A stretch of DNA of 64,000 nt from Alphaproteobacteria bacterium (GTDB taxonomy: Bacteria; Pseudomonadota; Alphaproteobacteria; UBA9219). The notes under the pieces are model-generated. The model saw only the letters and a program-made list of their open reading frames with translations, was not told where the DNA came from and made no database searches. Each line of letters opens with the position of its first letter. Position 1 is the stretch's first letter. The stretch lies in contig JAQVBU010000008.1 of assembly GCA_028690155.1 (NCBI GenBank), positions 7,593 to 71,592 on the forward strand. Direction: 5' to 3'. Made by a program: the position numbers and the translations under genes. Positions 15,934 through 44,980 of the stretch are shown here, piece by piece.

Positions 15934-15962
15934 ATTATAGCCCCAGTTTGGGGCATTGTCAA
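15934..15962 (-). promoter_or_regulatory. sigma-70-type promoter TTGACA-N17-TATAAT with spacer palindrome GCCCC-N5-GGGGC (copy 1)
   Basis: Reverse complement reads TTGACAatgccccaaactggggcTATAAT, upstream of ssb. Confidence 0.6.
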
Positions 15963-16018
15963 TAAAAACAATGCCCTTTCACCTTTCATTCGGGGGAAAA
16001 TGACCGTGAGGTTGTAGC

Positions 16019-16267
16019 CTAGCGCTTGCGTTTTGTCTCGACCGCACTTCCCTTTGCTTCGGCCTCGAGCGTCTTTACCGCCTCAGTTACGTCCTCGTTT
16101 GTGTACCCGAGGTGGAGAATCATAGCGCATACCCCATACCACACGGCAACCAACTTCCTGAACAGAACCTGCCGCACTGCCTTCTTCTTGATGTTGGCAC
16201 GCTTGATGACCACGATCGTATGGATCTCCGACATGGCGTTGATGGTCGAATTGATCAGCTTATCCAT
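16019..16267 (-). CDS. hypothetical small protein
   Basis: 82-aa ORF with one hydrophobic segment. Confidence 0.2.
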   Translation of the reverse strand: MDKLINSTINAMSEIHTIVVIKRANIKKKAVRQVLFRKLVAVWYGVCAMILHLGYTNEDVTEAVKTLEAEAKGSAVETKRKR

Positions 16268-16800
16268 TTTTCCTGCCTTTCTCCACCATTGACGAGCCTC
16301 GTTTTGCGAAGAATCTTGCTTACCGCCCCTTGGGTGATTCCATACTTGGAGGCGATAACAACCTGCTTGTGCCCAAGCGCATAGAGCCGTGCAACTTCGC
16401 CTCGCTCGGCGTCGCTCAGTTTCGCGTTCGGGTTTTTCTCTCCGACAGTGGCGGTCCCAGCGTTGTACTTATCGCACCAATTCTCGTATGCCGACCCGTA
16501 TTCCAAGTTCTCGATTCTGTTGTCGTGGCTATCGCCGTTCAAATGCCGTACCTGCATACCGGCACGCGGAGGCTTGCCGTTGAATGCAGCGCACACGAGG
16601 GAGTGCACATTCACCGTAACATACGTCATGTCCCTTCTCATGAGGCTCACGGTTTCGTACTTGCCTCCCGAGTGCTTCTTGACAGGGGCGACCTTGATGT
16701 GCATCCGGCCTTCAATGATCTCGCTATCGACCACGCTGTAGATGCCGCCATCGCTTCCGGCATAGTATCCGCAGTACTCGTCCAGTTTTACATATCGCAT
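16255..16800 (-). CDS. HNH homing endonuclease (NUMOD4 + HNH_3)
   Basis: YCGYYAGSDGGIYS (NUMOD4-like) and VHSLVCAAFNGKPPRAGMQVRHLNGDSHDNRIENLE (HNH). Start ATG at 16800. Confidence 0.7.
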   Translation of the reverse strand: MRYVKLDEYCGYYAGSDGGIYSVVDSEIIEGRMHIKVAPVKKHSGGKYETVSLMRRDMTYVTVNVHSLVCAAFNGKPPRAGMQVRHLNGDSHDNRIENLEYGSAYENWCDKYNAGTATVGEKNPNAKLSDAERGEVARLYALGHKQVVIASKYGITQGAVSKILRKTRLVNGGERQEKWIS

Positions 16801-16859
16801 GGCGTACCTCCCATATCGCTCACACGCTTCGTAATTCCCCCGGCGATCTTGCCGCCTGC

Positions 16860-17081
16860 TCACTTGTATATCTTTCCCGTCGCTCTGTCCCGCACCTCGA
16901 TGCGGCACAATAGATCAAACCCCGCAAGGTCTATTATGCCTTTTAGCGCCCTGATAAGCTGCATTGGACGCTGATCTGCCTCGCTCTGTCGGTCGTGCGC
17001 TCGCATCACGTTTGACAAGGCACTGTGGGCCGTTGGGTCGAGATAGCCTTCTGCGTTGCGAATCGGTATCCTGTCAGCCAT
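16860..17081 (-). CDS. hypothetical protein
   Basis: 73-aa ORF. Confidence 0.25.
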   Translation of the reverse strand: MADRIPIRNAEGYLDPTAHSALSNVMRAHDRQSEADQRPMQLIRALKGIIDLAGFDLLCRIEVRDRATGKIYK

Positions 17082-17451
17082 TCATGAACCTCTGCACGGA
17101 AAGAGCAATCCCCTCGTTATGGTTCTCGAGGGCTTGAAGAACGTCATATTCATCCATTCCCGCTTCAATAAGCTCATAGGCGGCCTTCATCCGCAGGATT
17201 TCTCCATCCACTCCGTAGGTGTTGTTCTCAGCCCTTACCTCATAGAAGCACGCATCCGAAAACCGTCTGCTCGACACCGTAGCGAGCATGTTCCGTACTT
17301 CTGCCCGTCTTGCGGCTTCGTCGAGCTTTTTTGCCGAGTACTCAAAAGCTTCCTTGATGAGCGCTCCGATCTTCTTGACCATCACCAGTCTCCTTTCCCG
17401 CGCTCTTGGCGCGGATTTTGTCCCGAGCGGTAGAGGCCGCATTTTCGGCAT
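17074..17451 (-). CDS. hypothetical protein
   Basis: 125-aa ORF. Confidence 0.3.
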   Translation of the reverse strand: MPKMRPLPLGTKSAPRARERRLVMVKKIGALIKEAFEYSAKKLDEAARRAEVRNMLATVSSRRFSDACFYEVRAENNTYGVDGEILRMKAAYELIEAGMDEYDVLQALENHNEGIALSVQRFMNG

Positions 17452-17560
17452 CTTTGAAGCAGCCCCATCGTGTCCTGATCCTCAAACCGATGTCGGCAAA
17501 ATACCCGATTCCAGAAAAGCCGCCCAGAACCAAAAGCACCATATTTGTACTTGCGCTTCA

Positions 17561-17827
17561 TCAGCCATCATCTCCTCCGTTCCATACAACGCCCTTGCCC
17601 TTACAGGCCGGACATTCGCCGTCCACGTCCGCTCCGCGCCCATTGCATACGGGGCACTTGAAAGGCTTTAGGGCGGGGGCTTTGCCTTTCAGATGGTCAA
17701 AGCATTCCGGGCAAATGTGAAGCATAATGAGAGCGGTCTCCCCGCAATGAGGGCATACCGTGTTGTTCAAGAGGCTGTGCGCCGTGAATTTCTTCCGGCA
17801 TCCGCAGCAATTAACTTCGCGCACCAT
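17561..17827 (-). CDS. Cys-rich small protein (multiple zinc-ribbon motifs)
   Basis: Four CxxC pairs in 88 aa. Confidence 0.35.
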   Translation of the reverse strand: MVREVNCCGCRKKFTAHSLLNNTVCPHCGETALIMLHICPECFDHLKGKAPALKPFKCPVCNGRGADVDGECPACKGKGVVWNGGDDG

Positions 17828-18299
17828 AATCCAACATCCTTCCGGCCTTCAATGCAGCTCCGGGGTCAGTGGCCGGAGCCAACGCGCCCTCGGCAGCCAG
17901 CGCCGCTTCTCCTTCTCTGCGTGCGTCTGCGAGCGTCTGGCCTTCCTTGGCGCCGACCATCCATGCGGGCGGTGTTGGCATCGTGCCCTTTTGCGGGCGC
18001 CAGATATGCAGCGCATACGGGTGCATATTGACATACTCGCTCTCCATCGGGTGATATTCAACGCAAACTTCTTCCGGGTGGAAGAACATGCGCTTGATCT
18101 CGCACATTTCTTCCCATGTAGGCGTCCGATTGGAGAATGAAACGCTTACGTGATCCCAACCGCCCCCCCAGCTGAACACGACCATCGCCGGGCGCGGCTT
18201 CTTGCTGCTGGCGAGGTGGGCTTCGGCCCAGCCTCCGTCTGCGCCTTCGCGAAGAATGATAAGGCGTGGGGTCTTCTTGATCTGGATAATATTCTTCAT
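17811..18299 (-). CDS. hypothetical phage protein
   Basis: 162-aa ORF; conserved-looking SWGGGWDHVSVS...EYHP core. Confidence 0.3.
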   Translation of the reverse strand: MKNIIQIKKTPRLIILREGADGGWAEAHLASSKKPRPAMVVFSWGGGWDHVSVSFSNRTPTWEEMCEIKRMFFHPEEVCVEYHPMESEYVNMHPYALHIWRPQKGTMPTPPAWMVGAKEGQTLADARREGEAALAAEGALAPATDPGAALKAGRMLDYGARS

Positions 18300-18617
18300 G
18301 GTTTACCTTCTCTCTCTGGTGTCATCCTCACGGTTATGGTATACTGCTGCAAAGGGGTGATTCGATGCCGACTCACATGCTTTCTAGTAATGAGAAAAAT
18401 GATCTCCGCATTTTTGTCGAGATGACCGTCAAGACCGGCTTACTCCCGCAGGAGATGGTGGAGAAGCTCAATACCGACAGACTTACGAAACAAGACCTAT
18501 CGCGAATCCAGCGCAAGATTGATGGTGTCATCGGCGGGGCGACCCTTGAGATTCGGCCAGGCACAGGGCGGTTGGTTATGGAATCTCTCATGATGGCAGC
18601 GACGGCGCATAGAGCGC

Positions 18618-19124
18618 TCACTCGGATTCGGGTATACGACTGGAAGTAGGCCCTTGTTTTGCTTCCTCTGTCGCCGGCTTTACGTTCCCTGGACATCCGG
18701 GATAGGGGCATTTGTGATCTCGCATGTCCTCAAGGCTTGCCGCAGAGAAACAGAATCTCCCGCATTTTTCACATATGTACTTTTTCATACGCTTCCCTTC
18801 TCCCGCTCGGCGCAGGAAGTTTCGTACCCGCGAAGCAGGCAGTCCCATAGCCATCATTTTCTCCGCGGCCTCAAGCGCGGGAAATAGGCGTTTGATTGTT
18901 TTCAGTTCCCGCTCCATATGCGCGCTCTTTTCTTGCAACGCGGTGATCTCGTCCGGGTTAAGGTCAGTGTCCTCATACCTCGCGAGCCGCACATAGTTCC
19001 TTGGAACAACACAACCGTTCGTGCATCCACCGATTTCATGGCAACCGCGCTTGCAGTAATTGTCCTGCCCGCAACACTCCCACGGGTCAAGGTTCCTCCA
19101 TGCCTTTTCTGTCAGCCTGTCCAT
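18618..19124 (-). CDS. Cys-rich hypothetical protein
   Basis: 168 aa with several CxxC/CxC motifs. Confidence 0.3.
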   Translation of the reverse strand: MDRLTEKAWRNLDPWECCGQDNYCKRGCHEIGGCTNGCVVPRNYVRLARYEDTDLNPDEITALQEKSAHMERELKTIKRLFPALEAAEKMMAMGLPASRVRNFLRRAGEGKRMKKYICEKCGRFCFSAASLEDMRDHKCPYPGCPGNVKPATEEAKQGPTSSRIPESE

Positions 19125-19142
19125 CCTCGTCCTCCTCCGATG

Positions 19143-20369
19143 TCACTGTCCTTCGTCTTGCTCCGTGAACATGCTCACTTGTTCCGGCTTTACAATACTT
19201 CTGGCGCGCGCTGCATCTTCCATCAATTCTTCCAACCGGTCGCCTCCTATCGTCTTTTCAATTCGCTCTTGCTGAAACTGTTCGAGTTCGGAGAATTGGC
19301 CGGATCGAACTACTTGCTCCATTCTGCGAATCTTCGCGGCCTTCGCCTTCTCTCGCCTTTCCTTTTTCGTCTCAGCGGCGGCTTTCTTTTGATCGCTTGC
19401 ATGAATGACGGTCACCCCGTCTTTCGCCGCTTGCAGGTCGGCCATCAAGTCGCGCGCGTCCTTTGCGCCCTTCGGAATTACCCGGATGTTCTTTACTTCC
19501 ACGCGGAAGCGACCGTGCCAGTGATGTTCCTCGAAGTAGAGATTCGCATACTCGCGGGAGTTTCGTATCTGCCAGTCAAACAACTCGGGATTCTCTGCTG
19601 TCATGCTGCAAATAGCAAGGCGTCGAGCGTGTTTAAAGTACCTCACTCCACGGGTGATGATTTCATTCCACTCTCCGTCAAAAAACGTGCCGTCCGTTCT
19701 GCGCCAGTGCTCATGAACATCGTATAGGACGTTCCCTTCTCTGCCGCTGTCGCGCATTCCGCAGCGTAGACACGGCTGTGTTATGCAGTAATCAGGGCAG
19801 ACGTTCGGGTCGTATTCACGGATGTAGTCCCACTTAATCCGCTCTCGATCCCACCTGGCATGGTGCGGGCAAAAGCTCCCCAGTTCTGCGCGGACCGCCG
19901 CCGCAAACTTTTTGAGCGCCACCGCCGCACGATGCTCGTCTGCCTGACGCTCACGCTCAGCTACAGCGTCCAGGGAATCGGTTTCGGAGTACGGCTTGTC
20001 CGTTGGCGTCCCCGCGCACTGGGCTAACCAGCTCGCGCCGCCGCCCAGCCGCAGGTCCTTCAACGGGCAGTCTGTCCTCGCCGGGATGTACGGGCATCGC
20101 ACGGTTGGATTGTCGTTCTCGTGGCACCATGTCACGCCGCCATAGCCCATATTGCGCCCATTCCATTCATCCTCGCGCCAGAGCAGCCCGCACGGCATCT
20201 CGTAGATTCGATCGCGCAGGAATTCCTTCTTGTACTCAAATTGCCCGTAGCCGCTTTCCCATTTCACGTTACCCGGATGGTTCTCCGGAGTGCAACCTTG
20301 GGCGATCAGGCGAGTTGTGAGATCGTTCGGATATTGCGAAACTCTGAAAGTACTCATATGCCCACGCAT
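19143..20369 (-). CDS. hypothetical protein (408 aa), Cys/His-rich N-terminal half with a charged C-terminal coil
   Basis: Long ORF with good coding appearance; no recognised motif. Confidence 0.35.
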   Translation of the reverse strand: MRGHMSTFRVSQYPNDLTTRLIAQGCTPENHPGNVKWESGYGQFEYKKEFLRDRIYEMPCGLLWREDEWNGRNMGYGGVTWCHENDNPTVRCPYIPARTDCPLKDLRLGGGASWLAQCAGTPTDKPYSETDSLDAVAERERQADEHRAAVALKKFAAAVRAELGSFCPHHARWDRERIKWDYIREYDPNVCPDYCITQPCLRCGMRDSGREGNVLYDVHEHWRRTDGTFFDGEWNEIITRGVRYFKHARRLAICSMTAENPELFDWQIRNSREYANLYFEEHHWHGRFRVEVKNIRVIPKGAKDARDLMADLQAAKDGVTVIHASDQKKAAAETKKERREKAKAAKIRRMEQVVRSGQFSELEQFQQERIEKTIGGDRLEELMEDAARARSIVKPEQVSMFTEQDEGQ

Positions 20370-20563
20370 GGCCGCATGCCGAAAAAGTCTTCCAGTCGGT
20401 CGCGAAGTTCCGATGGCTCGATGTCATACTCCTTTGCGACGCATTTTTCGCAGACCGGCGTCTTGTACGCCAATGCCTTGCTGACGCGAGCATCCCAACT
20501 GTTCAGGCGCTGCCCGCAGACGTTGCAATTGATGTCGAGCCATTTCACGCGATCTGCCATCAT
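20354..20563 (-). CDS. small zinc-ribbon protein
   Basis: ATG at 20563 preceded by GGAGGCG; CNVCGQ...CEKC. Confidence 0.3.
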   Translation of the reverse strand: MMADRVKWLDINCNVCGQRLNSWDARVSKALAYKTPVCEKCVAKEYDIEPSELRDRLEDFFGMRPCVGI

Positions 20564-20576
20564 TATCGCCTCCGTG

Positions 20577-20726
20577 TCACTTATCCTCTTTGATTCTCTT
20601 GATGCTTTCAAGGATCGCGATAACCAGCGCCGGGATGGCGAGAATCCCAATCCCCATGACAACGAATCCCGCGACGGATATGCAAGCTCTTGCCCCGTCC
20701 TGAAAAGCGCGTGCGAACTCACTCAT
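20577..20726 (-). CDS. small membrane protein (1 TM)
   Basis: Hydrophobic core VAGFVVMGIGILAIPALVIAIL. Confidence 0.25.
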   Translation of the reverse strand: MSEFARAFQDGARACISVAGFVVMGIGILAIPALVIAILESIKRIKEDK

Positions 20727-32991: not shown

Positions 32992-32995
32992 TTCC

Positions 32996-35900
32996 CTACT
33001 CCAGACTAGCGTGGCTACCGCCCTCGTCCTTGAATACATAGATGGCTTGCGGAAACCTTGCTGACATTTCTTTGTCGTGCGTGATAATCATGACTTTCTT
33101 GTCCGGATAACGGCCTTGGATGTTCTCTACAGCTTCGCAGTACGATTGAACGCCTTGACTATCTAAAAATGGAGGTTCGTCAATGGCGATGAATCCAATC
33201 TGCACGCCAGCATCGGCGCTCTTGACCTCAGCGAGTGCCAGGATAACGGAGAGTGCAACCTTGACGCGCTCGCCGCCGCTACGCGACAGGTACGGGAGCC
33301 TTCCGGTATCTGCGTCGGAGATGATGATGTCGAGCGTAACGACCTCCTTTTTGTTGTTGGATTTCATCACCTTCTCGGTGACGAGCTCGACGGACATCTT
33401 GCCGCCCGTCATCTGACCAAGGATGTTTGAGGCCGTCGCCTCGAGCAGCGGAACGACAGACCGAACGATGGAGTGCGGAATGCCGTTGTTACTGAAAGCG
33501 CGCTTTAGGGCGTCGCAGAACGCGGCAATCCGGCTCTCGGCAGCTATCTCCGTGGACAGGGACAGCATGTCCGTAGCTATCTGCTCGGCTTGCAGGAGGT
33601 CGTTTGCGAGTCCACCCTTGACGGCCATATGCCGATCTCGCTCGCCGTTGAGCGCGGATATCTGGTCGGAGAGCGCGGAAACGGATTGCCTCACTTGGTC
33701 GATTCCCGTGGAAAGAACCAGCTCGCCGGCGAGGCGCTCCTTCTTGTCGATTGCTTGTTTGTCGAGATCATCCACATCGGCCTGAATCTCCTTGATCCTG
33801 GCGGACGTTGACGCAAGACGCTCTTTGGCGATAAGCAAGCCCCTCTCGCGCTCGATGTAATGAGCGGATGCGGTGACCTCATCGCTCGCCTTGCTACACG
33901 CCGCGACAATCCCGCTCATCGGGATCAGCTTCGTTTCGATGGCCACCTGATCCGCGTTCAGTGTCGCGGATTTTTCTATGAGGGCAGTGATCTGGATGTC
34001 GAACTGTTCAATGCTCCGCCGCCGTTCCTCCAATTCGCCGCGTAGCTTCTCAAGCCCGAGATACGCCGTTGCGCTTGCGGCGAGGGCTTGCCGAGATGCC
34101 TCGAGGCGAGTGATCGCATCATCTGGCACGGCAGCCGCGTCTCGGGTGGCGCGCAGAGCGGAGATATTCACTTCTCCATCAGCGACAACCTTCTTCGCTT
34201 GCTCTGTCTTGTTTTCATGCTCGCGGACTGCCGGCTCAATCTGTGACTGCGCCTCGACCGCATCTTTCAAGAACTTGCATGTCGCTGATTCCAGAACAGG
34301 ACAACCGCTGTCAATCAGCAGGGACGCGCGACGCTGCAGGTCGGCGATCTGGGTTCTGCGGAGGGTGAAGGCGGCGCGGTATTCTTGGCGCACGGCTTCG
34401 AGCTTGTGCGATGCTTCGGATAACGCCTTGTCCGCCTCACGATAGGCGTCCCGCTTTGCATGGGCCGCCTTGATCTCGTCCCCAAGTCGCTGATATTCCT
34501 CGTGCTTTGCGCGAAGGTCAGCCTCCATGCTGAGCGTAGAGGACACGCGTTCGGCGTTCAAAACGGCTTGCTCCCGCAGTCCCTTTACGAAACGCGCGGT
34601 GTCCCCGGCGTCCTTGAGCGCAGCTTTCGTGTTCGCCAAATTGGAGAGCAGCGCGTCGTGTTCAGCCTTCTTCTTGAGCAGCGCGTCTCGGGCCGCCACG
34701 GCAGAATGATAACGTTCTACGCCGTCCATGATCTCGCGCTCCGACGAAACGACACCCTTTGCGCTGTCGAAGGCTGCCCGATGCTGGTCGAGTGATAACC
34801 GGAGGGACCTGCCCTTCGTGGCAATGGCATCAATCTCTACGGCAAGCGCATCGGCGCGCTTCTTCGCGGACTCGAGATTTCCAAGCGCAAGGCTTGATTC
34901 TTCGAGTTGCTTGCGTGTAGATTCGATGCTCGCGTCGAGCGCAGTTATCGAGCTGTCCTCGACGGCAATCTTCGCCTTCACATTGTCAACATCCGGCATG
35001 CGCGCCGAGAGATCGTCCTTTCGGACCTGTAGCTGGCGTACCAAGCGGTTTGCATCGGCCGACTTTTCCGTAGCGACATCCTCCATCTCGTCGTAGATAC
35101 CGAGCCCGAGGATGTCGGAGAGGATTTTCATGCGGCTCTCCTTGTCCGCTTGGAGGAACAGGCCGTATTGATCTTGCATGATAAGGGCGCAGGCGCGCAG
35201 CGTCATGCCGTCCATGCCGATTGTGCGTTCGATCTCGGTTTGGGTATCGCGCAGTTTCTCGCGGCTCCGGTCAACCCATTGGCCGTCCACGTATTCAGAC
35301 AGGTTGAGCGTTGCCTTGCCGGACTTGACACGCGTTCGAGCGACTCGAAAGACCTTCTCGCCAACGCGGAAAGTGAACTTAATGGCACCCGACTTCACGC
35401 GCTCGTCGTTGCAGATCCATCCGGTCAAATCGCCTTCGCGCGGTTCCTCGAAAAGCGCGTCATAGATGGCGTCCATGAATAAGCTCGACTTGCCGACGCC
35501 GTTCTGCCCGTTTACGGTGCAGAAACGAACATCATCGAAGCTGAATGTCTCCTGCCTGTAATTGCGATAATTGGTCACGTCGATCTCTACGGGTACAAAC
35601 AAGCCGTGCGGCTTCGTGGCGCGTCCCTTCGCCATTACGACATCAATAATCTCGCGGGCAAGGGGCATCATCGCCTCGATGTCCTCCAGATCGGTGCCGT
35701 TTTCGAGGAGATATGTCCGGAGGTTGGTTTCCGGATCATTCTCGCTGGACATGGCTTTCTTGCTGACGGTAATGGTGATCTTCTCCGGGGTGATCTCCTG
35801 AACCCAGAACGCGCCGTTGTCGTACAGGTATCTCTCCATCTGCGCACGGTTGAATCCTCGGTTGGCTTCGTCCGTGCAGTTGTAGAGCACGCGGACGATT

Positions 35901-36820
35901 GCTCCGTCCACGTCGTAGAACGGCAGCATCCCGGAGAGGTTGAAATCCTCCACGTCGCGCCCGTCGAGGCGAATCGTTTTGAATTTCCGCGCGGGAAGTT
36001 CATGCATATCACTGGTGACGCCATCCGGCACCAGGTCATGCACATAAAAGCCGCGCGGCTGGTTCTCGTCATTGAAATTGAAAGCGTTCACGGCACCGGA
36101 ATAGAAGGTGTGGCCGCCCAAATCCTGTGGGCGGTGGATGTGTCCAAACAAGCATAGGTCGTAATTCGCAACTTCAAGCGCGCGCCGGCTGACGACAGGC
36201 TCGAATTGCGAGAACATCATGGTCTGCCCGGATTCAGTATTACAACCATCGACGGTGTAGTGGCCGACGAGCACGCATGGGATGCTTCTTTCGCACATGG
36301 CGCGCATGCCCACGACCATCTTATCGAGGTTCTCCGAAAGCTCAACGTTCTCGTTTTCGCGGTCGATGCCGGGGTTGTGAGCGCGCCAATACCCCCGGTC
36401 GAATCCGGGTAGCGCGCAGACACATACCGTTTCGCCGGAGCGCGTGGCAATCATATGCGAACCTGGCTCGGTAAGTATGTGAACATCAGGATTGCCGGAA
36501 AAGAACTGTTTCAGCATGTCGAAGTGCTTTGCCCCGTCATGATTCGGCGTACCGCGCAGTACTATTACGGGCGCAATTTTTGCAAGGGCGGCAATGCGCG
36601 TCGCGGCGATTTCCACCTCATGTATTCCTCGATCGCTCCATGTCCGGGCGGCGTGAAACACGTCGCCCGCGACAACGGACAGGTCGATATTGAGCGCGCC
36701 GGCGCGGTCGATCAGCGTGTCGATGCACCGGAGTGTATCAAGAGCACGCGCGTTTTGCCCGTCTTGCGTGGGGCCGGGAAAATCGCCGATATGCCAGTCG
36801 GCTGAATGCAATAACCTCAT
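32996..36820 (-). CDS. sbcDC: fused SbcD(Mre11)-SbcC(Rad50) nuclease/ATPase, single 1275-aa polypeptide
   Basis: N-terminus: DWHIGD, AGDVFHA, NHDG, GHIH phosphoesterase motifs. Middle/C-terminus: Walker A NGQNGVGKSS, long coiled coils, signature LSRSGGERVKVALS, Walker B IAIDEPPFLD, H-loop IITHD. ATG at 36820 preceded by GGAGG. Confidence 0.75.
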   Translation of the reverse strand: MRLLHSADWHIGDFPGPTQDGQNARALDTLRCIDTLIDRAGALNIDLSVVAGDVFHAARTWSDRGIHEVEIAATRIAALAKIAPVIVLRGTPNHDGAKHFDMLKQFFSGNPDVHILTEPGSHMIATRSGETVCVCALPGFDRGYWRAHNPGIDRENENVELSENLDKMVVGMRAMCERSIPCVLVGHYTVDGCNTESGQTMMFSQFEPVVSRRALEVANYDLCLFGHIHRPQDLGGHTFYSGAVNAFNFNDENQPRGFYVHDLVPDGVTSDMHELPARKFKTIRLDGRDVEDFNLSGMLPFYDVDGAIVRVLYNCTDEANRGFNRAQMERYLYDNGAFWVQEITPEKITITVSKKAMSSENDPETNLRTYLLENGTDLEDIEAMMPLAREIIDVVMAKGRATKPHGLFVPVEIDVTNYRNYRQETFSFDDVRFCTVNGQNGVGKSSLFMDAIYDALFEEPREGDLTGWICNDERVKSGAIKFTFRVGEKVFRVARTRVKSGKATLNLSEYVDGQWVDRSREKLRDTQTEIERTIGMDGMTLRACALIMQDQYGLFLQADKESRMKILSDILGLGIYDEMEDVATEKSADANRLVRQLQVRKDDLSARMPDVDNVKAKIAVEDSSITALDASIESTRKQLEESSLALGNLESAKKRADALAVEIDAIATKGRSLRLSLDQHRAAFDSAKGVVSSEREIMDGVERYHSAVAARDALLKKKAEHDALLSNLANTKAALKDAGDTARFVKGLREQAVLNAERVSSTLSMEADLRAKHEEYQRLGDEIKAAHAKRDAYREADKALSEASHKLEAVRQEYRAAFTLRRTQIADLQRRASLLIDSGCPVLESATCKFLKDAVEAQSQIEPAVREHENKTEQAKKVVADGEVNISALRATRDAAAVPDDAITRLEASRQALAASATAYLGLEKLRGELEERRRSIEQFDIQITALIEKSATLNADQVAIETKLIPMSGIVAACSKASDEVTASAHYIERERGLLIAKERLASTSARIKEIQADVDDLDKQAIDKKERLAGELVLSTGIDQVRQSVSALSDQISALNGERDRHMAVKGGLANDLLQAEQIATDMLSLSTEIAAESRIAAFCDALKRAFSNNGIPHSIVRSVVPLLEATASNILGQMTGGKMSVELVTEKVMKSNNKKEVVTLDIIISDADTGRLPYLSRSGGERVKVALSVILALAEVKSADAGVQIGFIAIDEPPFLDSQGVQSYCEAVENIQGRYPDKKVMIITHDKEMSARFPQAIYVFKDEGGSHASLE

Positions 36821-37344: not shown

Positions 37345-38382
37345 CTAATGTCGAGTGTTTGCCGATCTCTGACAGGATGCGCACAAAGGCTTGCCATATT
37401 TACGAGTGGAGTACTCCACGATTCTTTCCGGCGTCCAGTTCCCGTTCGCAGTTATGACGCTGTGGCACTCTGCGCAGATAGGGAAATCAGCTTGCCGCGC
37501 CGGGTCGGGATCATCCTGGATGTACGGAGGTGTGTCATCGGGATCATGGGAATCCTGGGGTACGGTGTAGCCCGAGGATTCATCCGCGTCCAAATTCGCA
37601 CCATCGAAATGGGTAGCATCCTCCTCGTCGCTTATCTGAACCACCCTGCGCTGAACATCCTTGTTGTCAGCGCCGTAGACCGCGTTCGCGCTGGAGAAGA
37701 AGCTGTCCACAGCTTTGGCGCGAACGTCGGGATTGTCAAGGTTCGGAACGAGATACGCTACCACAAACGGCTTCTTGAGTTCCTCGAGTGTGTAGGTCGG
37801 CTTAATGAGCATTGCCGCTCGGAGCGCACGGTTCAGCGCCTTGCTCTCACAATGCTCTGTCCGGAACTTCAAAAACTGGTTCCGCTGGCTGTCGGTCATT
37901 CCGGCCACTTCGTCGGCAACGATGATCTCGCGGCTGCACTCATAGAAAATGTCCTGCCCAGTAAGCTGCGGCGCGGAGATCACGACCGTGTACTTCACAT
38001 CCTTGTTTCCGCACATGCCGCAGTTTACGGGCTTCCCGATGTTGCGGTTGACTTCCACGCACTTTTGACAGGTGGATGGAAGCACGGATTTGGAAGATAC
38101 AATCCTGATGCCGGCCGCGCGCATCAGTTTCAAAAGCCCTTTGCGCGTCAGCGCGTAGAATGTGGGATGACCCTCTCGGGTCTTGCCGTCGCGGCCTGTC
38201 CACGGGCTTTTGGCTTCCTCCTGAACGTAGACTTCCTTGTCGTTGAGATCAGTCGAGATGTATACGACATTCAAGACGGGCTTTTGAATGTCCGCGATTT
38301 CCGTGACCGTCTGGACGGGGACGAGGATGTTGTACTTGTCAATAGGATACTGCTTGGTGATCGCCAGCGCATTGTCCGACAT
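37345..38382 (-). CDS. putative recombination/single-strand annealing protein (uncertain) with acidic C-terminus and zinc ribbon
   Basis: 345 aa directly upstream of sbcDC. Call rests on context only. Confidence 0.25.
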   Translation of the reverse strand: MSDNALAITKQYPIDKYNILVPVQTVTEIADIQKPVLNVVYISTDLNDKEVYVQEEAKSPWTGRDGKTREGHPTFYALTRKGLLKLMRAAGIRIVSSKSVLPSTCQKCVEVNRNIGKPVNCGMCGNKDVKYTVVISAPQLTGQDIFYECSREIIVADEVAGMTDSQRNQFLKFRTEHCESKALNRALRAAMLIKPTYTLEELKKPFVVAYLVPNLDNPDVRAKAVDSFFSSANAVYGADNKDVQRRVVQISDEEDATHFDGANLDADESSGYTVPQDSHDPDDTPPYIQDDPDPARQADFPICAECHSVITANGNWTPERIVEYSTRKYGKPLCASCQRSANTRH

Positions 38383-38785
38383 TTTTTATTCCTCCATATT
38401 GTGTTTTTCCGAAAAGCGTGATACAATATGGGTATCCGAGAACGTTGACCAATTCTCGCACCACGGCGCACGACACTCCACTGTCGTTCGCCATTTTTTG
38501 TACCCATTCTTGTTCTTCGTTCGCCTGCTGCTCCTGCGCAAGGCGCAGGAACTCCTTGAAAATCTCGTCCCTCTCTTTGTGGTAGGCGTCAAGCCGGTTC
38601 TGGTTGACCGTCTCAGCAATGAGGATCGCGAGATAGTCATCGCCGTAGTTGCGCTTGAAAAGGTCGTTCTGGAAGTCGAGTTTCATCCGTGCGTATCTCG
38701 CCGCTTCGTCGTACTCATCGTCAGTGATCGGGTGGCCGAAGCGCGCCTCCGCCATCTCCCTCAGTGTCATTTGCAGCACCTCCAT
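38339..38785 (-). CDS. hypothetical protein
   Basis: 148-aa ORF. Confidence 0.3.
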   Translation of the reverse strand: MEVLQMTLREMAEARFGHPITDDEYDEAARYARMKLDFQNDLFKRNYGDDYLAILIAETVNQNRLDAYHKERDEIFKEFLRLAQEQQANEEQEWVQKMANDSGVSCAVVRELVNVLGYPYCITLFGKTQYGGIKNVGQCAGDHQAVSY

Positions 38786-39029
38786 CCGGTATCAAGTCGA
38801 GCAAGGATACCTGCTCATGCGTCGCGCGCGCCTGCGCCATGCTTCGGTTGCCTCCGGCTCTCTGCCTTGTGCGTGGTGTGGTTTCCCCTGCCGCGCGAGG
38901 TATAGACCCACCAAACGACTTGCGGTAACACACAGGCCCGTAGCCGATTGCCCTGGCATCCGGATTCGTGAGGACCCTCCTGCACCGTTTGCAGCGCGCT
39001 GTGAGAACCGCTTCGCTCAACCTGACCAC
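38721..39029 (-). CDS. DUF6011-like small protein (CxRC...GYGPVC motif)
   Basis: CKRCRRVLTNPDARAIGYGPVCYRK. First gene downstream of promoter copy 2. Confidence 0.35.
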   Translation of the reverse strand: MVRLSEAVLTARCKRCRRVLTNPDARAIGYGPVCYRKSFGGSIPRAAGETTPRTRQRAGGNRSMAQARATHEQVSLLDLIPDGGAANDTEGDGGGALRPPDH

Positions 39030-39066
39030 CTCCCTTTATTGTTTCAAAATGGATCTTTGTGCGCTT

Positions 39067-39095
39067 ATTATAGCCCCAATACGGGGCATTGTCAA
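39067..39095 (-). promoter_or_regulatory. promoter-operator cassette copy 2 (TTGACA-N17-TATAAT, palindromic spacer)
   Basis: Reverse complement reads TTGACAatgccccgtattggggcTATAAT. Confidence 0.6.
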
Positions 39096-39101
39096 TATAA
39101 A

Positions 39102-39383
39102 TTATGCGCGCCCTGTGTTCCTGGCGATTCCGGTTTTTGAGAACCCATTTTCCACAAACTCCCGTTCAAAATTTGGATTGGTATAGCTGAAAGGGGAATC
39201 GTCTCCGCTTGCGGCTTTTTTGAGTGCGTAGCACTCCATATTTGCGCTATCGAGGCGCTTCTTGAGATCGTCGATCTGGCGCGTGTGATAGCTTCGCTCG
39301 CGCCTGATCGCTTGGGTCTTGTCCCATACGACAATGCGGTCCAAAGCGATACCGATTATGGCAGCCAAGATGTAGAAAAACAT
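39102..39383 (-). CDS. small membrane protein (1 TM)
   Basis: MFFYILAAIIGIALDRIVVW. Confidence 0.3.
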   Translation of the reverse strand: MFFYILAAIIGIALDRIVVWDKTQAIRRERSYHTRQIDDLKKRLDSANMECYALKKAASGDDSPFSYTNPNFEREFVENGFSKTGIARNTGRA

Positions 39384-39577
39384 TACTTCGTCCCCTCCTT
39401 GTGCTCGTAGACGATGCCTGAGCGCAGCCCCCAGCCGATCATTATGCCAAGTGCCAAAGTCGCCATGAATGCGAACCAGCCGTCGAGATAACCGTCCGTG
39501 TACATGAGCATGAAGCCGTCCGCAGCGTCTTCGAGAAGGGTTCCGAGGCTCTGCAGCCAACCGACAAGCGCGTTCAT
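39383..39577 (-). CDS. small membrane protein (2 TM)
   Basis: Two hydrophobic helices in 64 aa. Confidence 0.3.
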   Translation of the reverse strand: MNALVGWLQSLGTLLEDAADGFMLMYTDGYLDGWFAFMATLALGIMIGWGLRSGIVYEHKEGTK

Positions 39578-39737
39578 CGCACCGCGCTCCCTTCTTCGAT
39601 TTCTACCTTTTTTTCAAGCGCGGCAAGAATGCACTGCGCGCAGTCATGGAGGCAATCCACCGGCTTGGGGAGCGTCGTGTCGCAGATGCACAGAGGGCTA
39701 TCCGCTATCGCGCGCACCAAGATTTCGAGCGCCCCGG

Positions 39738-40025
39738 TCATGCGAACACTTCCTTTCTACGCCGCCCTTGGCGGCACTGTTCTGCGGCCTTGGCCCCTTC
39801 TTCAATGAGTTGATCCAAGCGGCTCTTAGTTTTTCCCTTGGCGTTCTTGTGCGCCTCGCAGTAAGCTTCAAACCCTTCTATGTCGATGCGCAGGGTGCCT
39901 TTATCTCGGAAAACAATTCCGAGGGGTTCGCATTCGTGCATGATGTCGTAGGCCTTGCTCTTTTTGACATCGAGGATTTTCATAATATCAGAAGCCTTGT
40001 AGTAGGACTGCTTCGCGGCCGGCAT
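39738..40025 (-). CDS. HTH DNA-binding protein (excisionase/MerR-like HTH_17)
   Basis: SYYKASDIMKILDVKKSKAYDIMHEC resembles excisionase-family HTH. Confidence 0.35.
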   Translation of the reverse strand: MPAAKQSYYKASDIMKILDVKKSKAYDIMHECEPLGIVFRDKGTLRIDIEGFEAYCEAHKNAKGKTKSRLDQLIEEGAKAAEQCRQGRRRKEVFA

Positions 40026-40041
40026 ATCCTTGCCTCCTTTG

Positions 40042-40524
40042 TTAAACGTCCATCCCGTTCTTCTCGGTATAAATCTGTAGCGCGTGGATTGCTGCCTTCA
40101 ACCCGCCGAGACGTTTTACGATCTTCCGGAAACTCTCGATCTCGTGCTCGTCGACACTTCCGTTGGCAGCAATCATCAAAAGGGTTTTTGCATCTTCCGA
40201 GATGTCCTCGGTTGCCCCGAAGAAGCGTATGGCGACTTGCTCAAGCGGTCGATTCTCCGCCCTGGGGACTCGTCCTTTACCAAGCGGGCATTGCTCGGCG
40301 CAATAATTTGTTATAAGCTCCGGAGCCCGATATACCTGCGCCATACGGCGAACGTTGTAGTTGCTTGGCACGGTCTCGTCTCGTTCCCACCGGCCAATCG
40401 TCTCGGGAGAACCTACCTCAAGCACTTCTGCCGCCCCTGCGTGGGTTGCCAGCTTCTCGTTGCTGGATGCGGCGGCCAATCTCGCCTCGCGGTATTGGTC
40501 TCCGAGCGTTTTACTACCAGTCAA
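40042..40524 (-). CDS. XRE-family HTH regulator
   Basis: LGDQYREARLAAASSNEKLA HTH_XRE pattern. Confidence 0.5.
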   Translation of the reverse strand: MTGSKTLGDQYREARLAAASSNEKLATHAGAAEVLEVGSPETIGRWERDETVPSNYNVRRMAQVYRAPELITNYCAEQCPLGKGRVPRAENRPLEQVAIRFFGATEDISEDAKTLLMIAANGSVDEHEIESFRKIVKRLGGLKAAIHALQIYTEKNGMDV

Positions 40525-40589
40525 AGTCCTTTTCCACCTCCGCTCTATGCGGTATACTCTACATACAGTCCCTTGAATGCGTGACCTGA

Positions 40590-40826
40590 TCAGTGGGATT
40601 GCACGAGCCGCTCAACAGGGAATCCGAACAACTGAGAAAGCTTGACCGCAACTTCGATGCTCGGGTTCTTCGTGCCGTATTCCAACTTCTGGTAGTATTC
40701 GGGTGTCACGTCGATGGCAAGGGCTGCCTCGAACTGCGTAAGCTTCTTCGACTCTCGGATGTCCTTGAGCCATTCGCGCCTTCCGTAGTATTTCACGATT
40801 ATTTCCTCCTTCCCTTTGACATACAT
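40590..40826 (-). CDS. Cro-like XRE-family HTH regulator
   Basis: LKDIRESKKLTQFEAALAIDVTPEYYQKLEYG. Divergent from the 41197 gene across an operator-bearing intergenic region. Confidence 0.55.
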   Translation of the reverse strand: MYVKGKEEIIVKYYGRREWLKDIRESKKLTQFEAALAIDVTPEYYQKLEYGTKNPSIEVAVKLSQLFGFPVERLVQSH

Positions 40827-41138
40827 CCCGTTAGGATGTATAATACAGAGTGAATTATTGTGCCTAGGGGGTAATAGTGGTGTCCGAGATCGTTTACTGC
40901 GAAGCCATCAATGATCAGGTAGAGATCGTTGTCAAGCTGATCCAGTCCCCGATTCCGACAAGCGGAAAGTTCGGCCTCGATCAGATACCTGTCTCGGCGA
41001 CCTGCGAGCACGCTGCCACGTGCGAGGAATCGGGCAGCACTGAATGCCGTGTCACGACGAATCGTGCCATGTATGAGTAGTGCAGAACACCTCCTTTGTC
41101 TGGCGATTCGGGTATGGGGGTTGTATGTCTGCATTATA

Positions 41139-41186
41139 ACGCACTGTGGTGCGCTTGTCAACCCATAAACGCACTTTGGTGCGCAA
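41139..41186. promoter_or_regulatory. pair of inverted-repeat operators (ACGCAC-N4-GTGCGC) in the divergent intergenic region
   Basis: aacgcactgtggtgcgc and aacgcactttggtgcgc, about 30 bp apart, between divergent HTH genes. Confidence 0.5.
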
Positions 41187-41196
41187 ATATTTTTAG

Positions 41197-41565
41197 GTGG
41201 TGAGCTTGGTGTTTTATGACAACTTCCTTGCCGCATGTGCGCGAGCTGACGTAAAGCCGACAGCCGTTATTGTAGAGGCCGGGCTCAGTAGCGGCAATAT
41301 ATCAAAATGGAAGAAGGGCGTCGTGCCGAGCGGGGAAATCATCCTTAAACTCGCAAAAATGCTGCGGGTTTCGACGGACGCGCTTTTGGACGGGTTGGAT
41401 GCGCCGGAAGATGCGGATGCGCAAAACAGACCCGCCCCCGTAATCGGAGACGGGCCCTCTCAGGTAAGTATTAACCTCGCCACGAAGATCGATCTTCTGT
41501 CTGAACAGTCTCGTCGGGAGCTGGAGAACTACATAGCGTATCTCGAATCGAGAGACGAGCAATAA
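41197..41565 (+). CDS. XRE-family HTH regulator (non-ATG start)
   Basis: GLSSGNISKWKKG...ILKLAKMLRVSTDALL HTH_XRE. GTG/TTG start near 41197-41206. Confidence 0.45.
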   Translation: MVSLVFYDNFLAACARADVKPTAVIVEAGLSSGNISKWKKGVVPSGEIILKLAKMLRVSTDALLDGLDAPEDADAQNRPAPVIGDGPSQVSINLATKIDLLSEQSRRELENYIAYLESRDEQ

Positions 41566-41838
41566 GTTCCAGTACTTCTGCCGGACAACCAAGCGCTTCT
41601 ATTCGTAGCGCGAGGTCTAGTGATTGTTCAGTGGGATGGCATACACAGGCTCCCTTCTGACAAACCGGCTCGTCCATATTTGCGCCCTCCGATTATACCA
41701 TATTTTGGAATCCGCATCCATTGGTAAAAGATAGCAATTACTTTAAACCCAAGGACATCCGGCACCGAAGCGGGTGAGAGGCAGGGTGGTATTTGATGGT
41801 TTCTTTGTAGCAGCGGGATAGCCTCTCGGGAAATTATA

Positions 41839-42039
41839 ATGGTTTGGTATAGGAGGATGGTCAGAATGCGAATAATTGGAATACTCTTGGTTATCCTGGG
41901 CGTCGTCGGGACCGCCCTGTCATCTATGATGTTTGGCGATATAGGAATCGCCGGAATGATCGCATCGTTGTCATCGTTGCTCGCCGGCATTGGATTTTGC
42001 AAGGCCCACAAGCGACTGAAAGGGATGGAGAGAAAATGA
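41839..42039 (+). CDS. small membrane protein (2 TM)
   Basis: IGILLVILGVVGTALS and IAGMIASLSSLLAGIGF. Confidence 0.3.
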   Translation: MVWYRRMVRMRIIGILLVILGVVGTALSSMMFGDIGIAGMIASLSSLLAGIGFCKAHKRLKGMERK

Positions 42040-42578
42040 AGAAGATTTTTGCGTTTGTGCTGATCCTCTCGTTGGCTTTTGCCTCGTGTGCCAGCTCGGA
42101 GGGTGAGAGCGAATACGATCTCGACACCATGTCGGCCGACGAGCTTTATGCGCTCATCGACGCAGCGAGACTCCGCCTAATGGAATTTGACGGCACATAT
42201 GCTGAGCCCGATATGGTGCTGTACGACGAGCAAGGGGTGAAAGTCGCTGTAGCGGACTGGAATGTGCGGTCGTTCGGAAAGGACGATGCCACGCTGGATA
42301 TGAACATCATCATTGAGAATGACACGGATGCGGCGATCATTGTATTTGCCAAGAATCCCCGCTTGAACGGGTGGGCGCTTTCTGATGTGTCATCGTCTTC
42401 AATAGAATCGGGAGCGCGTGCCCGGAAGAAATTTTCGTTTGATTATGTCGGGAGCAAGGCAGACGTGATGAGCAACGATGATCTGCAGGACATCCAGTTT
42501 GCCTTGACCGTCACAGGGGTCGACTACAAGACGCTTGCGAGTACCGATGTTCGGTTGCAGTTTGGCAATCACGAATAG
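42036..42578 (+). CDS. secreted lipoprotein
   Basis: Signal peptide MKKIFAFVLILSLAFASC with lipobox; located in the lysogeny module. Confidence 0.5.
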   Translation: MKKIFAFVLILSLAFASCASSEGESEYDLDTMSADELYALIDAARLRLMEFDGTYAEPDMVLYDEQGVKVAVADWNVRSFGKDDATLDMNIIIENDTDAAIIVFAKNPRLNGWALSDVSSSSIESGARARKKFSFDYVGSKADVMSNDDLQDIQFALTVTGVDYKTLASTDVRLQFGNHE

Positions 42579-42804
42579 GCCTCCCGCGCTTGGGTTTCCC
42601 TCTTGACACAGCAAAGAGATCGTCGTTGGTATAGCGGAGGATGATTTTAATCCTCATGCTGAGGTTGAGAGATGGCGATTTCGTGCCCCCCTCGATCTGC
42701 GAATAATGACTGCGCGAGATGCCGAGTTGCGAAGCAATCGAGTACTGCGTATACCCGGCATTCGCGCGCATAGTGGATAGTTTCTCTCTCATATAAGCCT
42801 CCAT
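42511..42804 (-). CDS. XRE-family HTH regulator (cro-side of the main switch)
   Basis: AGYTQYSIASQLGISRSHYSQIEGGTKSP. Directly downstream of promoter copy 3. Confidence 0.5.
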   Translation of the reverse strand: MEAYMREKLSTMRANAGYTQYSIASQLGISRSHYSQIEGGTKSPSLNLSMRIKIILRYTNDDLFAVSRGKPKRGRPIRDCQTATEHRYSQASCSRPL

Positions 42805-42833
42805 CTCGGTTTCGGATTGGGATTTCTATACTC

Positions 42834-42862
42834 ATTATAGCCCCGTTTTGGGGCATTGTCAA
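42834..42862 (-). promoter_or_regulatory. promoter-operator cassette copy 3, in the divergent region between the 42804 gene and the cI-like gene
   Basis: Reverse complement reads TTGACAatgccccaaaacggggcTATAAT. Overlaps the 5' UTR of the cI-like gene. Confidence 0.6.
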
Positions 42863-42873
42863 GGAGGATTGGT

Positions 42874-43314
42874 ATGGCAATATTCGGTGAACGGCTTGTG
42901 GCGGCAAGGAAAGAGGCTGGCCTAACGCAATACCTGCTGGCTGAAAAACTCCAGCTCCCGCGTTCCACGATTTCTGGCTACGAAACGGAAGGGAAAGAGG
43001 CACCATATGCGATGCTGGCTCGCATTGCGACCCTGCTCGGCGTCACCACGGACTACCTTACGGGCAAGAGTGACAAACGGACAACTGCCGTCGAAACGGT
43101 TGTCATGGGGGAACTATCCAATCTACAGCGCGCGTACGACGCTGCCCGCCCTGCGGTACGATCCGCAGTTGCCGCAATGCTCGGAGATGTCTATGCAATC
43201 ATGGCTGAGGCGCTCGATAGCGAAAGCCCGGATAAACTAGCCGCCTGTGCCGAGTTTCTGTCGGCGGCGCGGCGCATGTATGCGCCGATGACCGGTGATG
43301 GACATGGCAAGTGA
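42874..43314 (+). CDS. cI-like repressor (XRE HTH)
   Basis: ATG at 42874 after GGAGG. LTQYLLAEKLQLPRSTISGYE HTH. Immediately upstream of the integrase. Confidence 0.6.
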   Translation: MAIFGERLVAARKEAGLTQYLLAEKLQLPRSTISGYETEGKEAPYAMLARIATLLGVTTDYLTGKSDKRTTAVETVVMGELSNLQRAYDAARPAVRSAVAAMLGDVYAIMAEALDSESPDKLAACAEFLSAARRMYAPMTGDGHGK

Positions 43315-44551
43315 GGCAAAGAAACCCGGACGGCGCAGGAAGGGGCAACGGAAGGATGGGCTGATCGCGGTCTATGGTGATTATGGGCGCCGGCCGGACG
43401 GATCACGCGACCGCAAGACCTTCTATGGGCATACGTGGGAAGAAGCCGACGCGCAGCGCAAGGCGTATGCTGAGGAACGAAAGCTCGGCGCGCCATTCGG
43501 AAGTGACAAGATCACCGTATCCGAGTGGTGCGACGAGTGGTTCAGCAACTACAAGCCCAAGGTGAAAGGGACGAACAGAGTATCCTATAACGCTTACATA
43601 GCTCGCTTGAAGAACGACCTCGGATTTGCGTTGGTGCGCGACGTTCTACATATCCACCTCCAGGCATCTTTGAACAAGATGTCGGGGATGTCAATGTCAT
43701 CCATCACAAAGTACAAGATGGTTTTGCAACAGGTATTTGCTCGTGCCAGGCAAAACAAGATCATTCGAGACGATCCGTCGGAAATGCTCGAAATCCCAGA
43801 GGGGACAGAGGGGGAGCACCGGGCCCTTGAACGCTGGGAGGCTGATTTCATTGTCGAGCATTGGTCGGAGTATCGCACCGGTTTATGGATAATGTTGATG
43901 CTGCTCGCAGGTCTGCGACGCGGCGAAATGTCGGCTCTGTCTTGGGACAGCATCGACTTGACGGCGAGAACGATCACCGTGTTCCAAGCCGCTGAGTATG
44001 TCTCGAATCAGCCGGTCATAAAGGATACCACAAAAACGGACGCGGGGATGCGTACATTGCCGATATGCGATGCCTTGTACGTCGCGCTATGCTCCGTACC
44101 CAAGGCGCACAGAACCGGTCTGGTCTGCCTGTCTGCGCACAAGAAGCCGTTATCGCAGAGAGCGATGGAAAAGGGCCTCGGAGGTTTCAACGTGGCAATG
44201 GAACGCCTCCTTAACGGTGAGCCGGTGAAACAACAGGGTAGACGGAAGGATGTCGAATGTGGTAAAATGACCGAGGAAGAAATCGCTGCGATGGAAAAGC
44301 GGGCGAAAGAGCGAAAGCGTTTTGAGATTCGCATGCATGATCTCCGCTATACGTTCGCCACTGCTCTGTACGATGCCGGGGTGGATGTAAAGACCGCGCA
44401 GTACTATCTCGGGCATGCCGACATCCGGATGACAATGGAACTCTACACAAGAATTTCCAAAGAGCGCGAAAATTTGGCTCGAGCAAAGACGATCAGTTTC
44501 CTCGATTCTTGGTTCAAAAAGGAGCCTCCAACAATGCGTTCAGAGCAGTAA
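43295..44551 (+). CDS. int: tyrosine-type site-specific integrase
   Basis: C-terminal catalytic box HDLRYTFATALYDAGVDVKTAQYYLGHADIRMTMELYTR (R..HxxR..Y). Confidence 0.85.
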   Translation: MMDMASEAKKPGRRRKGQRKDGLIAVYGDYGRRPDGSRDRKTFYGHTWEEADAQRKAYAEERKLGAPFGSDKITVSEWCDEWFSNYKPKVKGTNRVSYNAYIARLKNDLGFALVRDVLHIHLQASLNKMSGMSMSSITKYKMVLQQVFARARQNKIIRDDPSEMLEIPEGTEGEHRALERWEADFIVEHWSEYRTGLWIMLMLLAGLRRGEMSALSWDSIDLTARTITVFQAAEYVSNQPVIKDTTKTDAGMRTLPICDALYVALCSVPKAHRTGLVCLSAHKKPLSQRAMEKGLGGFNVAMERLLNGEPVKQQGRRKDVECGKMTEEEIAAMEKRAKERKRFEIRMHDLRYTFATALYDAGVDVKTAQYYLGHADIRMTMELYTRISKERENLARAKTISFLDSWFKKEPPTMRSEQ

Positions 44552-44554
44552 ATT

Positions 44555-44890
44555 TCGCGTCCGGCAGTAAAATGGCAGTAATTGGAAATGGGGCGCCGCA
44601 TGATTATTCAGTATTCCACGCTATGGATTAAATATATACGGAATATGCGCGGAATCAAGAATAAAATGCACTTTGAGGGGTTTGAATGGGGTTCAAGAGG
44701 CCGGAGGTTCAAATCCTCTCACCCAGACCAGAGAAACAGCACGGATTTACAAAAATCAGTGCTGTTTTATTGTATATATTCCACAAAAGTAGGCCATTCC
44801 TAGCCCTTTCTCACGTCATATAGTGGTTCTGAATCGTCCGTTCCGTCCGGGTTTTCCGCATCGTCGGCAGTAAAATGGCAGTAATGTGTT
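44555..44890. other. attP region: AT-rich, core flanked by 21-bp arm-type direct repeats
   Basis: cggcagtaaaatggcagtaat at 44562-44582 and 44865-44885 flank the tRNA-fragment core. AT-rich, in contrast to the GC-rich flanks. Confidence 0.55.
44686..44731 (+). other. tRNA 3' fragment (T-arm, acceptor 3' strand and CCA) = att core
   Basis: GGAGGTTCAAATCCTCTCACCCAGACCA; no complementary 5' acceptor strand upstream. Confidence 0.55.
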
Positions 44891-44951
44891 TTCGCGGGCA
44901 GTAGGCGGAACAGCTTTTTCTCAAAAAGCCCTATTTTGAATCAAATAAGTG

Positions 44952-44980
44952 TTGACATAGCCCCGATTTGGGGCTATAAT
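44952..44980 (+). promoter_or_regulatory. promoter-operator cassette copy 4 (plus strand)
   Basis: TTGACAtagccccgatttggggcTATAAT, followed by GGAGGG and ATG at 45007. Confidence 0.6.

Follow-up and report, generated by a model that had tools for sequence, protein, structure and literature searches.

Consensus promoters with a spacer palindrome as probable targets of the immunity proteins of a temperate phage of gut Clostridia

Four promoters in a 64-kb stretch of contig JAQVBU010000008.1 (assembly GCA_028690155.1, positions 7,593 to 71,592; the whole stretch is called the window here and is numbered from its first letter) combine perfect -35 and -10 boxes with the inverted repeat GCCCC-N5-GGGGC, which is placed in the spacer between the boxes. 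The window belongs to a large temperate phage of gut Clostridia. Based on the sequence comparisons in this work, we propose, with a probability of roughly 0.8, that the four sites are sigma-A-type early promoters and that the palindrome is the operator of the phage's own XRE immunity proteins. The initial annotation had read these sites as a repressor regulon, and this reading is supported computationally here, in that the motif tracks the repressor family over more than 100 loci.

Four promoters and their candidate regulators

The pattern TTGACA-N17-TATAAT is matched perfectly six times in the window, with 12 of 12 box positions in each case, against none in 100 dinucleotide-preserving shuffles of the window and about none expected. 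The positions and spacer sequences that had been given for four exact promoters were recovered exactly by this pattern search; the number four holds for the promoters with the GCCCC palindrome but not for the total, which includes two more perfect ones at 40816(+) and 41133(-) (Table 1). The spacer is 17 bp in all sites, the optimal length, and an operator of the MerR type, which needs an over-long spacer of 19-20 bp, was therefore rejected. The 15-bp sequence GCCCC-N5-GGGGC occurs in four copies in the 64 kb, compared with 0.08 expected, and every exact copy lies inside the spacer of a perfect promoter, always at spacer positions 3-17, with a variable 5-nt loop between arms that are constant among the four sites. 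Additionally, all six perfect promoters contain a spacer inverted repeat of at least 5 bp, for which the chance per random 17-mer of the window is 0.0146. Since the flanks of the 29-mers are unlike one another, an origin of the four sites as copies of a longer repeat or of a mobile cassette was also rejected.

The four promoters are intergenic, each reads into the gene directly downstream, and a start codon with a GGAGG-type ribosome-binding site follows 26-44 bp downstream of the -10 box. The genes that had been named behind them, namely ssb, the early block, the cro-side regulator and the first gene of the right arm, hold by their matches to Pfam and PHROG families. At the 42834 promoter, only 2 bp separate the -35 box from the ribosome-binding site that serves the divergent cI-like gene. 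A motif search at the scale of the window returned, besides the four exact copies, two copies with one mismatch. One of these, 90 bp downstream of the 44952 operator and within the DarA_C gene, may be an auxiliary operator, and the other is placed directly upstream of a near-consensus promoter at 12113-12142(-), so that its membership in the promoter set is uncertain. Single GGGGCAW half-sites are barely informative across the window (26 versus 17 expected).

Table 1. Promoters, operator-like sites and genes of the window discussed in the text
Feature	Position	Strand	Sequence or match
Promoter with GCCCC-aaact-GGGGC, ahead of ssb	15934-15962	-	TTGACAATGCCCCAAACTGGGGCTATAAT
Promoter with GCCCC-gtatt-GGGGC, ahead of the early block	39067-39095	-	TTGACAATGCCCCGTATTGGGGCTATAAT
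Promoter with GCCCC-aaaac-GGGGC, ahead of the cro-like gene	42834-42862	-	TTGACAATGCCCCAAAACGGGGCTATAAT
Promoter with TAGCCCC-gattt-GGGGCTA, ahead of the first right-arm gene (DarA_C)	44952-44980	+	TTGACATAGCCCCGATTTGGGGCTATAAT
Operator-like site, one mismatch, possible auxiliary operator	45049-45064	+	TGCCCCggtttGGGTC
Operator-like site, one mismatch	12154-12169	-	GCCCCtaataAGGGC
cI-like XRE repressor, 146 aa	42874-43314	+	Recognition helix PRSTISGYETEGKE; Pfam HTH_3, E 3e-12
cro-like XRE protein, 93 aa	42511-42792	-	Recognition helix SRSHYSQIEGGTKSPSL; Pfam HTH_19/HTH_3
Tyrosine integrase, overlapping the end of the cI-like gene	43295-44551	+	Pfam Phage_integrase, phrog_1
Perfect promoter with spacer palindrome TACATCC-cgtta-GGATGTA	40816-40844	+	Divergent from XRE gene 40590-40796
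Perfect promoter with spacer palindrome GCGCAC-caca-GTGCGT	41133-41161	-	Divergent from XRE gene 41197-41565
ssb, first gene behind the 15934 promoter	15473-15889	-	phrog_44, E 7e-52
DarA_C protein, first gene behind the 44952 promoter	45008-45586	+	Pfam PF18789 'Defence against restriction A, C-terminal', E 3e-14

Judging from its domain content and genomic position, the 146-aa cI-like protein is the prime candidate for the binding of GCCCC-N5-GGGGC. It matches PHROG families of transcriptional regulators and repressors, and its nearest solved relative is the Xre-family regulator of ICEBs1 (7t8i), with a weaker similarity to the helix-turn-helix (HTH) chain of 434 type dh434 (1sq8). Its recognition helix PRSTISGYE was placed by similarity to these two chains, and the placement leans as well on what is established for the 434 repressor. 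Pfam gives only HTH families in this protein and no S24 peptidase domain, and the C-terminal part aligns only to chains of helical repeats; on this ground the self-cleaving subgroup of LexA or lambda cI type was rejected, and induction is probably not LexA-like. The overlap of the integrase gene with the cI-like gene places both in a lysogeny module, and no ImmA-like gene was seen between the repressor and the integrase.

A further probable binder of the operator is the 93-aa cro-like protein. It is kept downstream of the operator-bearing promoter throughout the repressor family, and its recognition helix, SRSHYSQIE(T/S)GEK, equals that of the cI-like protein in its degree of conservation within the family, which would make the cro-like protein an equally good candidate, or else a second binder as in lambda.

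Taken together, these features make direct exclusion the most likely mechanism. The sequence WTGCCCC-N5-GGGGC fills the gap between the -35 and -10 boxes, and a repressor dimer would place one HTH on each of the GCCCC/GGGGC half-sites, with 10 bp from centre to centre, a distance suiting a dimer on one face of the DNA. Bound in this way, the dimer would cover the spacer and exclude RNA polymerase from both boxes, so that all four promoters would be silent in the lysogen. Upon infection or induction, when the repressor is absent, the four promoters would fire at full strength and so express the cro-like protein and ssb, together with the genes for recombination and replication and those of the right arm, among them the DarA-like one.

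The motif and its repressor family in related phages

A motif scan of IMG/VR returned 27 loci, several of them syntenic relatives whose proteins share 30-65% identity with those of the window; with a slightly looser pattern, the number rose to 74 loci with 75 motif copies. The homologue alignment of the 146-aa protein retrieved 27 loci in bacterial assemblies, labelled Oscillospiraceae, Lachnospiraceae, Christensenellaceae, Acutalibacter, Neglectibacter, Faecousia and others, and 80 more loci on viral contigs. Among the viral motif copies, 40 of the 75 are divergent to a homologue of the 146-aa gene and lie 98-117 bp from its start, and nine contigs have both a cI-proximal and a distal copy. 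The early-block copy is syntenic in the relative L020 (L020:6533, between homologues of 39102-39383 and 38339-38770), and the right-arm copy stands upstream of DarA_C homologues in nine distinct relatives (for example L017:6761 and L007:2971), which supports the earlier proposal that the fourth promoter ties the right arm to the same regulator. Deposited phages offered little for comparison: a megablast of 38000-46000 against 50,697 phage records gave no match, and a protein search with the repressor in the same records returned one unannotated fragment of a human faecal phage (40%) and distant XRE proteins, with no characterised relative. An exact look-up of the repressor sequence led to one read-assembly contig of 2.1 kb without host context, and a full-text literature search with the literal motif strings gave only unrelated papers.

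The palindrome follows the recognition helix of the repressor. With at most one mismatch and within 300 bp upstream, it was present in 38 of 54 distinct loci whose helix reads R[ST][TA][VIL]SGYE and in 0 of 49 XRE loci with other helices. The latter have a near-consensus divergent promoter with a different spacer palindrome, as exemplified by TACAAG-ttt-CTTGTA, TAAACA-aaa-TGTTTA, TTTCA-gtaaa-TGAAA and TGTGC...GCACA. Within subfamilies as well, the operator sequence tends to shift with the recognition helix, partly in step: the helix QRTTVSGYE goes mostly with GACCC..GGGAC (L073 and L177 are exceptions that keep GCCCC), RSAVSGYE with GCCCC..GGAAC, which some RSTVSGYE loci share, and RSTY[CS]GWE with GGGACA/GGGTCA half-sites.

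The half-site is also found at the promoter of the repressor gene itself. GGGGCA half-sites in the 300 bp upstream of cI average 2.2 in loci of the family versus 0.08 elsewhere, and in those relatives whose intergenic region is long, the cI promoter contains GGGGCA(A/T) twice as a direct repeat with a spacing of 21 bp, one copy in the spacer after a TACACA -35 box and the other upstream. This arrangement suggests that in these relatives the repressor controls, and possibly activates, its own promoter. The layout itself, seen about 20-110 bp ahead of the cI homologue in L011, L026, L028, L031, L035, L047 and other loci, reads TGCCGATTTTAGGGGCAA, then CTACACAAAACGGGGCAA, then TATAAT, the TACACA -35 box being a weak one. 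The right-arm promoters of L016, L019, L021 and L024 have a second half-site, AAACGGGGCA, about 52 bp downstream of the spacer operator in the 5′ leader, and that of L021 comes directly after lysis genes.

Several points weigh against an operator of the phage's own repressor. First, the XRE loci are related to each other, so the Fisher test on the helix counts (p 1e-15) overstates their independence. Second, 16 of the 54 loci of the family lack a close match to the palindrome, most of them holding recognisable variants. Third, the operator is near-constant across repressors that are only 32-45% identical overall, which is unusual for phage immunity; the HTH region is far better conserved than this whole-protein identity. 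Fourth, no promoter of its own was found for the cI-like gene in the window, L020, L017 and L029, none having fewer than three mismatches. In the window this is explained by the 42834 promoter, whose -35 box adjoins the ribosome-binding site of the gene; transcription may instead come from the upstream genes of the same strand (41197-42578), and no terminator-like site was called on that strand between 42578 and 42874. Finally, the cro-like protein and the 145-aa regulator encoded at 40042-40479 (phrog_6499) accompany the motif no less consistently than the cI-like protein, so that the association cannot name the binder.

This last point opens the strongest of the alternatives, namely that the operator is bound not by the 146-aa repressor but by the cro-like protein alone or by the 145-aa regulator. 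The cro-like gene and a homologue of the 145-aa regulator are, in most relatives, read directly from the cI-proximal promoter; the 145-aa regulator is found downstream of the motif more often than any other recognisable gene (40 of 81 distinct copies) and has homologues in nine of the first 27 loci, and the family-wide conservation of the cro-like helix, as described above, points the same way. We nevertheless regard this as unlikely. The half-sites within and just upstream of the cI promoter in the relatives form the classic layout of a self-regulating repressor, and the cI-like gene, next to that of the integrase, invariably diverges from the promoter, with a constant distance between the two. 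Moreover, cI and Cro share operators in switches of the lambda type, so binding by the cro-like protein would add to the proposal of a cI-type operator.

Recognition of the palindrome by a conserved host transcription factor of Clostridia would account for a motif that stays constant across such divergent repressors, in prophages on contigs labelled Oscillospiraceae, Lachnospiraceae, Christensenellaceae, Acutalibacter and Neglectibacter. It is, however, very improbable, since all the examined occurrences are in phage-type surroundings and more than half are beside this repressor family, the half-site moves with the helix of the phage repressor in several subgroups, and XRE phages of other types in the same collections have other palindromes.

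The palindrome is best read as a protein operator rather than as a hairpin. The arm pair 10-22 no longer matches in 19 of the 32 distinct promoters that are proximal to cI (GCCCC..GGGAC), and a change on both sides is seen only once; such uncompensated changes indicate that there is no selection for pairing, and a stem cannot account for half-sites arranged as direct repeats. An intrinsic terminator was rejected, as no T-run follows the repeat and the four palindrome sites are absent from the calls of a terminator scan. A single-strand promoter of the Frpo type was likewise rejected, because the predicted stems extend no further than one base beyond the spacer into each box and leave the boxes almost wholly unpaired. 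Therefore, although the 29-mers fold as single-stranded DNA at -5.8 to -8.3 kcal/mol (z-scores -2.5 to -5), the loop varies between constant arms in the window and a spacer repeat is present in all six perfect promoters, it is hardly credible that the repeat works as a structure, either a cruciform that alters the spacer geometry or an RNA hairpin that terminates or insulates read-through, when the arms change without compensation, half-sites stand alone or as direct repeats, the terminator scan is silent and the stem is confined to the spacer.

A second promoter pair and the surrounding phage genome

The other two perfect promoters, 40816(+) and 41133(-), are convergent and about 290 bp apart, across a Cys-rich open reading frame (ORF) of 67 aa (40877-41080), a layout that resembles the face-to-face promoter switch of the coliphages 186 and P2. 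The palindrome GCGCAC-N4-GTGCGT has a second copy at 41169-41184, and no convincing extra copies of this or of the TACATCC palindrome were found elsewhere in the window. By their positions, the two promoters probably answer to the adjoining XRE proteins (40590-40796 and 41197-41565). The closest relative, L020, has the two-module layout too, but with a different XRE protein and a different spacer palindrome, TTGACATAAATCCAAATATGGACTATAAT, at the equivalent place; this swap fits a rule of one XRE protein to one spacer palindrome, and suggests that two layers of immunity, one conserved and the other variable, are combined in the window.

Between the two XRE modules, at 41848-42578, two small genes on the cI strand have no match in Pfam or PHROGs; by eye, one is membrane-protein-like and the other has a lipoprotein-like signal sequence, MKKIFAFVLILSLAFASC. 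The same slot in L020 is taken by an unrelated gene of 431 aa (2510-3805). From this exchange, the slot looks like a place for swappable cargo expressed in the lysogen.

The window has Firmicute-style ribosome-binding sites and about 55% G+C, and the lysogeny module separates two arms. The leftward arm, on the minus strand, contains in order small regulators, an SbcCD-like protein of 1274 aa, a methyltransferase, ssb, and the terminase, portal and head genes; behind the 39067 promoter are DUF6011, phrog_13782, HNH and the SbcCD-like protein. The latter (32996-36820) matches SbcD-like PHROG families in its N-terminal part and SbcC-like ones besides, with 43-61% identity in relatives, and by these matches appears to be a fused nuclease. 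The rightward arm encodes the DarA_C-domain protein, two tRNA genes, a Ro-like RNA-binding protein and a sliding clamp; in the region 46251-49600, the tRNAs are tRNA-Gly(TCC) at 46251-46326 and tRNA-Val(AAC) at 47606-47681, and the Ro-like protein is 512 aa long (phrog_850, E 3e-135).

Two further regions deserve description. Downstream of the integrase, exact 21-bp direct repeats, CGGCAGTAAAATGGCAGTAAT, begin at 44562 and 44865, and between them are a stretch like the 3′ end of a tRNA or tmRNA (44683-44730; Rfam tmRNA, E 0.24, well below threshold) and a hairpin with 15-bp arms (44734-44767); judged by these elements, 44562-44885 is likely the attP region. Toward the terminase, the near-consensus promoter at 12113-12142(-), TTGACA-18-TATACT, with genes in the direction of the terminase downstream, is followed within about 30 nt by the hairpin GCGGCC-aacatg-GGCCGC and then six T. 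This region (12058-12169) looks like the PR'-tR' arrangement of lambda, which would imply antitermination control of the late genes; Pfam gave no match for the genes around this late promoter.

Implications and comparison with known switches

From this work, an abundant and uncultured prophage family of gut Clostridia gains a concrete operator, a set of promoters and candidate repressors, so that studies of its induction have defined sites and proteins to examine. Promoters with perfect boxes and a 15-bp spacer operator, of which there are three apparently orthogonal versions in one genome, could also serve as tightly repressible genetic tools in Clostridia.

A broader and rather doubtful reading is that this phage clade of gut Clostridia, which is represented by over 70 viral contigs and by 27 bacterial assemblies whose labels span several bacterial families, shares one frozen immunity specificity, while a variable second XRE module restores individual immunity. 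The pairing of the GCCCC-N5-GGGGC operator with a repressor of the RSTVSGYE type may have become locked through the position of the operator, tight between perfect boxes, and through its recurrence at several promoters. Were this true, phages of the clade would be cross-immune through this layer, with a bearing on the competition of gut prophages; the variable second module of the present phage would be 41197-41565 with the palindrome 41133-41184, and the whole would make a two-layer switch that includes the convergent promoter pair 40816(+)/41133(-).

The system resembles the cI-Cro switch of lambda and 434 in several respects: two XRE HTH genes diverge from each other next to the integrase, the operator is palindromic, overlaps the lytic promoter and has its half-sites spaced by one helical turn, additional sites occur in relatives at the promoter from which the repressor is expressed, and the HTH domain resembles 7t8i and the chain of 434 type. 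Lambda, however, has a tripartite OR that overlaps the promoter boxes, in place of the single 15-bp site inside a 17-bp spacer described here; the 146-aa protein, unlike lambda cI, has no S24 domain detected by Pfam; and the reuse of one operator at three or more distant promoters is unlike both lambda and 434. The arrangement had been called classic at the outset, which is true in that a spacer operator is a known layout, but not in the sense of the lambda layout.

Operators between the -35 and -10 boxes are known from P22 Arc at Pant and from synthetic promoters with the lac operator, wherein the repressor competes directly with RNA polymerase and the boxes can stay optimal. Those cases differ in that the repressors belong to unrelated families and that a single promoter is concerned rather than a genome-wide set.

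Such a set is found in P1 and in mycobacteriophage L5, large temperate phages in which one repressor, C1 or gp71, silences many scattered early promoters, and P1 also encodes the Dar anti-restriction genes. As in these regulons, the same operator is present here at several separate promoters of one phage genome. The operators of C1 and gp71 are, however, asymmetric, and the 'stoperators' of L5 also act inside transcription units, whereas the sites here are palindromic and always in the spacer; the repressor here has a Pfam XRE HTH and is set apart from C1 and gp71 by family assignment, not by direct homology search.

A further parallel is Reg576 of the plasmid p576, a small self-regulating repressor that by itself represses four promoters, one of which drives the putative anti-restriction gene ardC; some of its operator motifs are in the promoter spacer, and the establishment genes are transiently expressed after DNA entry (PMC6294495). 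It differs in that Reg576 is a ribbon-helix-helix protein whose dual TTATCCC heptamers are bound as two dimers, and in that p576 is a conjugative plasmid whose described promoters are not perfect consensus (PMC6294495). In principle, the understanding of phage switches is unchanged by these results: the system is an immunity switch of the ordinary cI/Cro type, with operators dispersed along the genome, in a family of phages that is unstudied.

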